DNA of 64,000 nucleotides, from the NCBI RefSeq assembly GCF_024223415.1, contig NZ_CP100500.1. The stretch is one strand, 5' to 3'. The notes below the pieces were generated by a model, which was not told the origin of the DNA, ran no database searches, and saw nothing but the letters and a program-made list of their open reading frames with translations. This DNA is from Escherichia coli (GTDB lineage: Bacteria; Pseudomonadota; Gammaproteobacteria; Enterobacterales; Enterobacteriaceae). The translations under genes were made by a program, and so were the position numbers. Positions 4,097-4,560 of the stretch are shown here, in pieces. Position 1 is the first letter of the stretch; the number at the start of each line of letters is the position of its first letter.

Positions 4097-4344
4097 GCTG
4101 TATGCTCTCCGGTTTTAACGTTGATGGTTGTCACCTGTTCCGCTCCGGCAATCTCCCGTTCTGTCAGCGTGGCAAAATTTGCCGCTACCGTTGTCATGAA
4201 TGCGCTTATCAGTTCGGGATGTGCTTTCGCGTATCCTTCTCCCGCGTGGCGGTCTATCGTTCTGATTGCCACCTTTAAGGCGTGCTCTGTCATGTCTAAC
4301 GCTTTATATTTTGGCGCTGTCTTATCTCTGGTTTTTCTGTTCAT
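4093..4344 (-). CDS. Hypothetical protein (about 83 aa)
   Basis: ORF translationally coupled to ssb; N-terminal extension of the raw ORF lies in the iteron array so the start was trimmed to the second Met. Confidence 0.35.
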   Translation of the reverse strand: MNRKTRDKTAPKYKALDMTEHALKVAIRTIDRHAGEGYAKAHPELISAFMTTVAANFATLTEREIAGAEQVTTINVKTGEHTA

Positions 4345-4560
4345 TCCCCACCACTCCCCACTTTTGCTCCCCACTTTTTAAATTCCCCACTTGCTCCCCA
4401 CCTCGTTTTTTGAGTGAATCTAATGCTTTGTTTTTCATTGCGTTTTTTACTCCCCACTTTTTTGGATGTATACAGGTGGGAAAGTGGGGAATTATGTTTC
4501 AATTTTGTTAAATTCCCCACTCTCCCCACTTTTACTACCCACTTTTTACAGTGGGTAAAC
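4343..4560. repeat. Iteron array (candidate replication origin)
   Basis: At least 8 direct copies of TCCCCAC(TTTT) (4345, 4355, 4368, 4384, 4395, 4451, 4514, 4522) plus inverted copies (4476..4490, 4551..4557) around an AT-rich spacer (4405..4450), immediately 3' of the helicase gene. Confidence 0.6.

Follow-up and report, generated by a model that had tools for sequence, protein, structure and literature searches.

The question raised by this locus is what a dense cluster of short repeats is doing in the 201-bp gap between the gene of a RepA-family helicase (4546-5961, minus strand) and the small ORF which follows it, and whether it forms the replication origin of an integrated phage satellite, as a sequence-only reading had proposed. 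The window, i.e., the whole stretch of 64 kb that was analyzed, is part of an E. coli chromosome with the genes yejM, yejK, rplY, radD, rsuA, and bcr. The array of TCCCCAC/GTGGGGA words extends over 4345-4571 and comprises nine exact copies (eight direct and one inverted) as well as four copies with one mismatch. On the plus strand the exact copies of TCCCCAC start at 4345, 4355, 4368, 4384, 4395, 4451, 4514, and 4523, the sole inverted exact copy covers 4484-4490, and the one-mismatch copies are found at 4476-4482 (inverted), 4536-4542, 4551-4557 (inverted), and 4565-4571. Most copies are extended by an A-tract, which gives AAAGTGGGGA as read on the helicase strand; the unit of the minus strand, the coding strand of all neighboring genes, is (A)AAGTGGGGA.

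Exact TCCCCAC occurs 17 times in the window, compared to 6.0 ± 2.3 times in shuffled sequences, none of 100 shuffles reaching 17, and nine of these 17 copies fall within the 185 bp of 4345-4529. By their density in the remaining window, a segment of 251 nt should hold 0.03 exact copies (Poisson P ~8e-20); if one mismatch is tolerated, 13 sites are observed where 0.5 would be expected. The sequence-only reading had counted at least eight direct copies together with inverted ones, in agreement with the positions given above. It had furthermore let the array overlap both adjacent genes, which applies only in part: degenerate copies do lie within the last helicase codons (4551-4557 and 4565-4571 only, the stop codon being 4546-4548), but all exact copies are intergenic, and the copy at 4345-4351 adjoins the ATG (4344-4342) of the next ORF in the RefSeq annotation without overlapping it. 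The AT-rich spacer between the copies, described as 45 bp long, was likewise present and flanked by copies, yet measures 49 bp (4402-4450).

Judged from its gene order, integrase and attachment site, the surrounding element is a PICI (phage satellite) of the EcCICFT073 type, about 11 kb in size and integrated at tRNA-Pro/yejM. The island lies downstream of tRNA-Pro (10420-10496) with all of its genes on the minus strand. It starts with an integrase gene (8960-10219, WP_000101718.1), followed by a gene for an AlpA-like HTH protein (8257-8463, phrog_66), an Icd-like region, a DUF4222 ORF (5958-6257) and the initiator gene, to which this ORF is translationally coupled. Beyond the array come the next ORF of 83 aa (4093-4344; phrog_1231, E = 1e-48) and the gene of the island's SSB as part of the replication module (3686-4096; phrog_44, E = 1e-39, RefSeq annotation), then genes for PerC and a ProQ/FinO-like protein, and finally a lambda-E-like major capsid gene, a gene for a head-decoration protein and a scaffold-like ORF. 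The window begins inside the island, approximately 0.6-0.9 kb short of its far end, and a 99.9% identical island of about 11 kb reaches from tRNA-Pro to yejO in strain 135. The genomic features by which Gram-negative PICIs are recognized were found, namely a size of about 8-12 kb, a terminal integrase, an AlpA-type regulator, genes running in one direction and a PICI-specific site. The gene order is that of EcCICFT073, and EcCIATCC25922 shares both the integrase (WP_000101718.1) and the attachment site; this site, yejM-luxR(narP), is also listed for EcCIED1a.1 and EcCI11128. A classification as Cf-PICI or as a new kind of capsid-encoding satellite was rejected, as the module of capsid, decoration and scaffold-like genes is also present in the prototype EcCICFT073.

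PICIs have their origin directly after the 3′ end of rep, where an AT-rich region is enclosed by two sets of iterons (Fillol-Salom et al., 2018; PMC6092414). The same study showed that a pri-rep-ori fragment of EcCICFT073 maintains a temperature-sensitive plasmid, that deletion of rep or ori results in loss or reduced maintenance, and that E. coli PICIs carry four Pri-Rep alleles. EcCI11128 is catalogued in its Table S1. The word GTGGGGA does not occur in the supplement of this paper, of which Fig. [quoted passage not shown] It begins with a helicase-proximal set of three direct iterons on the minus strand (4514-4542), namely GTGGGTA at 4536-4542 and GTGGGGA at 4523-4529 and 4514-4520, and the degenerate inverted partner of this set (4551-4557) lies inside the last helicase codons. 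A first AT-rich stretch of 23 bp follows (4491-4513, GC 0.33-0.35); it holds the least stable 30-mers of the region, the starts of which are at 4484-4492. Then comes an inverted iteron pair on the plus strand (4476-4490), with GTGGGGA at 4484-4490 and GTGGGAA at 4476-4482, and opposite to it, across a central TGTATACA core (4467-4474), a single direct iteron on the minus strand (4451-4457). The main AT-rich spacer (4402-4450) has a GC content of 0.275-0.30 in 40-nt windows and a 30-mer dG of -34.0 (mean -41.5, sd 3.4); both AT-rich stretches are among the least stable 0.8% of the 30-mers in 1-12000. The distal set (4345-4401) finally contains five direct copies of GTGGGGA on the minus strand with start-to-start distances of 10, 13, 16, and 11 nt; TRF reports a period-13 array at 4354-4378 within it, and its last copies supply the purine-rich GGAG sequence upstream of the ATG of the next ORF. 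With these five copies on one side and 1+2+3 copies (4451-4542) on the other, the main spacer is the candidate region for DNA unwinding and helicase loading. The copies on its two sides have the same orientation, unlike those of SaPIs, where the orientation is opposite around the AT region. Opposed copies are found elsewhere in the array, the pair at 4476-4490 being opposed to the copy at 4451-4457 across the TGTATACA core and to the set at 4514-4542 across the 23-bp AT-rich stretch.

Neither a DnaA box (up to one mismatch) nor an exact IHF site was detected in 4330-4580, and GATC is absent from the region. As Rfam yielded no match in the region (1-10600 at E-values up to 1; whole window at gathering thresholds), an RNA element as the identity of the array was rejected. 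An interpretation of the CTGTATA core as half a LexA box was dropped as well because the second half-site is missing.

The protein encoded next to the array, a 471-aa product annotated in RefSeq as "helicase RepA family protein", matches phrog_2850 with an E-value of 1e-248. It consists of an N-terminal part (1 to about 140) of which residues 1-113 are unmodelled in the full-length AF2 model, a RecA-fold AAA_25 core (152-320) and a C-terminal winged helix (about 405-471) predicted with a pLDDT of 85-94. Pfam recognizes only the AAA_25 domain (152-320, E = 2e-43), and NCBIfam gives weak RadA matches for the helicase and none for the small ORFs. The family profile finds RepA of RSF1010 in the PDB (1g8y, E = 9e-7), and a Foldseek search with the core of the AlphaFold model retrieves KaiC, Rad51, and RepA (1nlf, TM 0.55). 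In 29 homologues G174-x-x-G177-x-x-K180-S181 and D275 are invariant. The core of this Rep is therefore a RecA-fold, SF4-like helicase resembling RSF1010 RepA, presumably hexameric. The protein of the window has no primase domain, and its N-terminal domain of about 140 aa is unrelated to the domains of the primase relatives.

The sequence-only reading had also ended the helicase in a winged-helix-like domain, and this is what the structure predictions indicate. A model of the C-terminal domain by itself reached a pLDDT of 91.4 and shows a helix, a second helix, a recognition helix (448-457) and a beta-hairpin wing (461-470). Its best matches in the PDB are winged-helix DNA-binding domains (HrcA, Fur, DtxR, PcaR, LexA, SelB, and MCM4) with TM values of 0.6-0.7 and probabilities of up to 1.0. 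The corresponding E-values are weak (0.015 or higher), which is expected for a domain of 74 residues. Residues K446, R450, W451, and K454 show little or no variation, and His447, encoded by 4621-4623 on the minus strand, caps the N-terminus of the recognition helix and is the candidate specificity residue. The region coding for the winged helix (4549-4749, minus strand) lies within 200 bp of the array.

Over about 130 related loci that were compared, the layout of the array persists whereas the repeated word varies. Scanning a single genome for each species had yielded 72 loci (Xenorhabdus, Kosakonia, Serratia, Morganella, Pectobacterium, Hafnia, and others). In 25 loci the layout is the same whatever the repeated word: the stop codon is followed by two to three direct copies, about 24 nt, an inverted copy or two of them, a 24-nt spacer (26 nt in E. 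coli), one direct copy, 45-55 nt that are usually AT-rich and two to five direct copies. An inverted copy at the position equivalent to 4476-4490 is present in nearly all related origins among these 25 loci. The gap between the direct iteron at 4451-4457 and the inverted pair, 26 nt here, is 24 nt in most relatives, and in 30 different sequences of this 24-nt spacer, which together represent four iteron classes, positions 11-16 read TATATA. The same core is present in a Klebsiella element, and its equivalent in the window is TGTATACA (4467-4474). It does not vary with the iteron class, and ACCTGTATA is unchanged in all four E. coli variants.

This layout bears on the rival explanation that survives best, according to which the array is mainly an operator through which Rep or another island protein controls read-through transcription or copy number (handcuffing). 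Such a function would have a precedent in classical plasmid iterons, which act in autoregulation and handcuffing. It would also fit with the position of the array within a one-directional operon that runs from rep into the downstream SSB, PerC, and capsid genes and has no terminator in the array, and with the last copies covering the ribosome-binding region of the next ORF. However, no sigma-70-like promoter was found in 4000-4900, and an operator would have no need of conserved AT-rich stretches or of a TATATA core between opposed sites, both of which are features of an origin. Moreover, the equivalent region of EcCICFT073 is needed for plasmid maintenance (PMC6092414). A mainly regulatory array hence appears improbable, whereas a regulatory role alongside origin function could exist.

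The word repeated after the gene was also compared with the C-terminal motif K-X-F-x-R-W, in which X is residue 447. Arrays were searched in the 330 nt after the stop codon and defined as a word with at least three copies. These 330 nt contain three to ten copies of a GTGnnGn 7-mer which is virtually absent from the rest of the locus. Residue X predicts the word in all 51 genome loci with a clear array: histidine goes with GTGGGGA (6/6 loci), asparagine with GTGAGGA (17/17), lysine with GTGGGGG (22/22), serine with GTGCGGC (5/5) and glycine with GTGCGCA (one of one). Across 48 aligned loci, residue 447 is the only column that maps one-to-one to the iteron word, its mutual information with the word being equal to the full entropy (1.886 bits). 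No word with three or more copies followed the gene within 330 nt in 13 of 64 genome loci. The O157-type island (L003) has a GTGAGG array, and in E. coli 1701 genomes gave a match.

The rule was subsequently applied out of sample to 80 IMG/VR loci that were fetched after it had been set. Histidine was accompanied by GTGGGG in 26 of 27 distinct loci and asparagine by GTGAGG in all 18, so that of 45 additional distinct loci 44 conform to the H/N rule. The one deviating locus (L087) lacks an array and, like the 13 genome loci without one, may represent a decayed element or one with a differently placed origin. New variants of the motif obey the rule for position 4 as well (KNMRRW with eight copies of AGTGAG, KHLKRW with seven copies of AGTGGG), and a circular Klebsiella record of 17 kb combines RKSF with a GTGCGGC array. 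In a tree built from the helicase core only, H and N interleave within the E. coli clade and H and S within the Kosakonia/Enterobacter clade, which implies that the word was switched several times. The winged helix of the window protein thus has the properties described for an iteron-specific C-terminal domain of PICI initiators, in silico, by its predicted fold and by the mapping of residue 447 to the word.

The pairing of histidine and lysine with G and of asparagine with A fits general amino-acid-base preferences. Recombination of gene end and array as a joint block could create some association between residue and word without any contact. Nevertheless, the same residue is paired with the same word (H with GTGGGGA) on C-terminal domains that are 39-45% identical, and this apparent convergence on divergent domains argues, if not conclusively, against pure linkage, as does the joint change of all copies within an array. 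On the other hand, the S and G classes carry an insertion of one to two residues, and positions 4, 6, and 7 are too many for one residue to read at the same time, which makes a "one-residue code" too simple. We give about even chances to a model in which the N-cap at 447 largely sets specificity, the copies of an array are re-homogenized after a switch, rep and ori form orthogonal pairs, and TATATA acts as melting nucleus. In this model H or N would read G or A, respectively, at position 4 of the iteron, while K, S, and G would be associated with other words. If it is true, orthogonal rep-ori pairs would let several satellites share a cell without cross-activation.

The comparison also addresses the idea that the array is a non-functional relic, or a product of slippage or recombination carried along by the 3′ end of the helicase gene. 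The physical linkage of the array to the C-terminal coding region and the decay or loss of arrays in some relatives would be compatible with this. Yet copy number, orientation and spacings have been kept between E. coli and Xenorhabdus, Serratia, and Pectobacterium, the proteins of which are 50-60% identical, and all copies of an array have changed together to the same new word, which requires that selection acts on the copies jointly. A relic is consequently very unlikely.

Natural exchanges of the initiator provide a further line of evidence. E. coli islands keep the frame of DUF4222, initiator, gap, phrog_1231, SSB, and PerC while the initiator itself is exchanged, the DUF4222 ORF preceding each type of initiator. 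Where the initiator is a DUF927 protein, all 11 copies of the AACCCGCA repeat in the 8.2-kb locus lie inside the 370-bp gap, and in an island with a primase-family initiator (EcCICFT073 type) all 11 copies of the GGTAGA/CTGTCTACC repeat lie in the same gap. With unrelated initiators thus come unrelated repeats between conserved flanks, which indicates that the repeats belong to the initiator and not to neighboring or late genes. The products of DUF4222 and phrog_1231 were rejected as readers of the iterons for the same reason: the former is 74% identical in the island with the primase-type initiator and GGTAGA repeats, the latter 85% identical in the island with AACCCGCA repeats. A packaging signal (pac or cos accessory site) for a small terminase or a redirecting protein, to which the short repeated binding sites typical of TerS recognition regions and the terS gene of related islands might have pointed, is the least probable reading of all and is rejected since the word follows initiator type and residue 447 and not the capsid or terminase genes, L002/EcCI11128 (terS, HK97-like capsid) and the window island (lambda-like capsid) both having GTGGGGA and the same capsid module being accompanied by unrelated repeats when it occurs with another initiator.

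We consider it very probable that the array at 4345-4557 is the vegetative replication origin of an EcCICFT073-type PICI and that its Rep acts in the way proposed below. The PICI context, the location next to the 3′ end of rep, the AT-rich region with an iteron set on either side, the modelled winged helix and the co-variation of word and residue all support the candidate satellite origin, the PICI-type element and the PICI-like arrangement that the sequence-only reading had put forward. Circular "plasmid" records of related elements are suggestive, though no proof, of autonomous replication from rep and ori.

The mechanism that we infer would begin with induction and excision of the island, after which the 471-aa Rep would recognize the AAAGTGGGGA iterons via its C-terminal winged helix, with His447 at the start of the recognition helix helping to read the variable bases. 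Rep would sit on both direct sets and on the opposed copies flanking the TGTATACA core, and once bound would deform and open the AT-rich DNA next to these sites (4402-4450 and 4491-4513). Rep itself would then load onto the melted strands as hexameric replicative helicase, and the island's own SSB would coat the unwound strands. As Rep lacks a primase domain and no primase was identified in the island, priming would presumably be left to a primase of the host or of the helper phage.

For the annotation of this E. coli the result means that a vegetative origin can, with high probability, be placed next to yejM, and the satellite is then probably still mobilizable. The understanding of PICIs does not change, because this kind of origin was already known. 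Neither the residue-447/iteron rule nor the conserved TATATA core was found in the literature searched, and together they constitute a modest new addition. The repeated natural swaps of the iteron word together with one residue of the recognition helix provide a testable rule of specificity, and the suggested orthogonal helicase-origin pairs might be of use as compatible replicons or for predicting cross-replication of co-resident satellites.

Among known systems, a classical iteron replicon (Rep_3, pi, or TrfA) was rejected, as the initiator is itself a helicase and the region has neither a DnaA box nor an exact IHF site. The alpha protein of P4 unites a primase with an SF3-type helicase and depends on ori and crr, two sites at a distance from each other that contain repeats of the TGTTCACC type. 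In contrast, an exact-copy count over the window revealed no second GTGGGGA cluster elsewhere in the island, the gene content of which is unlike that of P4. Both are nevertheless E. coli satellites with one multifunctional initiator-helicase, a C-terminal origin-binding domain (predicted for the window) and short repeats (PMC6092414). T7 gp4-like primase-helicases of Xenorhabdus, Serratia, and Pectobacterium share the AAA_25 core, the winged helix and the downstream origin layout with the window Rep, but with 680-700 aa they carry Zn_Ribbon_Prim and Toprim_3 domains ahead of the core, which the window Rep lacks. IncQ plasmids use separate proteins for binding the iterons (RepC), for unwinding (RepA) and for priming (RepB′), whereas in the window Rep a predicted iteron-reading winged helix and the helicase form one protein, and no primase was identified in the island. 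The helicase cores of the window Rep and of RSF1010 RepA are homologous (1g8y and 1nlf, see above), and both systems have an iteron-based origin that does not rely on DnaA boxes, as computed here and generally known for IncQ.

The proposed mode of action resembles that of the SaPIs (SaPI1, SaPIbov1, and SaPI5), the Reps of which are self-loading helicase-initiators whose C-terminal winged helix reads iterons of 5-6 bp (Qiao et al., 2022; PMC9371898), a function that is predicted for the protein studied here. The iterons of the functional SaPI origin, 6-12 in number, follow directly after rep, are split by an AT-rich region and include opposed copies, and no separate loader is required (PMC9371898). 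The two groups are not homologous, however: SaPI Reps belong to AAA+ SF3 or SF6 (MCM-like), whereas the window Rep has a RecA-fold AAA_25 core of the SF4 type. It was hence not assigned to the SaPI Rep family, of which it is an analogue, and as its core is RepA-like the opposite polarity of translocation would be expected, following the RSF1010 RepA family.

With EcCICFT073 the window island shares the chassis, the gene order and an origin in the gap that separates the phrog_1231 ORF from the initiator gene; it differs in its replication module, the initiator of EcCICFT073 being a 584-aa "DNA primase family" protein with CTGTCTACC/GGTAGA iterons, and the two modules are alternative alleles. 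A close known relative is EcCI11128 of E. coli O111:H- 11128, which uses the same attachment site (tRNA-Pro/yejM side of yejO-narP) and has DUF4222, RepA-family helicase, iteron gap, and phrog_1231 in the same order. No published functional test of its rep-ori allele was found in the literature searched. The late modules differ, with terS and an HK97-like capsid gene in EcCI11128 and lambda-like capsid, decoration and scaffold-like genes in the window, and the replication modules are separated by 13% Rep divergence and a few degenerate copies. As its helicase is 87% identical, with H447 and a GTGGGGA array in the same layout, the sequence-only reading had arrived at a described kind of element: the origin found here is a further member of a published kind, a close allele of which is already present in the catalogued EcCI11128.

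The N-terminal part of the RepA-family helicase of the island (residues 1-131; 5569-5961, minus strand) shares 60-75% identity with the N-termini of initiators that are otherwise unrelated to it. These initiators are of the 'primase-like DNA-binding', DUF5906 and DUF927 types, and a DUF4222 gene precedes them as well. A counterpart of the segment lies at 3725-4120 of L083, a related element deposited as a circular record. Judged by these sequence similarities, the first ~131 residues look like a swappable module that is common to several initiator types. No usable AlphaFold model was obtained for this part of the protein (pLDDT <50).

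Among the related loci compared, those from Xenorhabdus genomes (among them L007-L021, L036 and L044) encode a primase-fused version of the initiator, with up to three copies per genome and a GTGAGGA array accompanying each copy. The array of locus L009 is mixed and combines ten copies of GTGAGGA with four of GTGGGGA, the iteron word found in the island. In L087, L061/L062, L063/L065, L023 and L030, no recognisable iteron array was present in the 330 nt downstream of the helicase gene, while the helicase and its winged helix look intact. The origins of these relatives have either decayed or are placed elsewhere.

Two of the related elements, L082 (CP018459.1; 16,971 bp) and L083 (NZ_CP148328.1; 10,790 bp), are circular and were deposited as 'plasmid'. 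Both are PICI-like satellites that have capsid genes and encode an integrase, an initiator, and AlpA or another DNA-binding protein, and they are probably satellites which were excised or replicating and were assembled as circles.

The early region of the island contains a stop-free ORF of 595 aa (6455-8242, minus strand), and in strain 135, which carries a 99.9%-identical island, RefSeq labels the entire ORF 'Icd-like protein'. Known families match only two of its segments, Icd-like repressor families at residues 188-246 and phrog_2512 at residues 474-594, and related islands have several small genes in the same region (Icd-like, Ash and hypotheticals). The ORF may be an accidental joining of frames and not a single genuine protein.

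Rfam matches above the gathering score to naRNA4, a REP-derived nucleoid-associated RNA (59958-60035, plus strand), and, upstream of rplY, to the L25 ribosomal-protein leader (14212-14237, minus strand) are usual E. coli features. TRF additionally reported two short two-copy tandem repeats (37310-37345 and 38350-38389; periods 18 and 21).

The capsid module of the island (391-2425, minus strand) encodes a lambda-E-like major capsid protein together with a gpD-like decoration protein and a scaffold-like protein, the C-terminus of which is similar to a head protease at its scaffold end (phrog_1999/phrog_53). The window contains no portal, no protease and no large terminase. As the prototype EcCICFT073 has the same module, it is not new. 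EcCIATCC25922, which occupies the same site, has a terS in addition, whereas the annotation of the 99.9%-identical island in strain 135 lists none. The interval between int and tRNA-Pro (10230-10413) contains four copies of TTTAGTTATACG (10232-10288; two direct, two inverted) and five to six of TCCGGTG (10311-10413). The TTTAGTTATACG copies agree with the att core published for yejM-luxR PICIs, and the two sets of repeats probably represent arm and core sites of the integrase.
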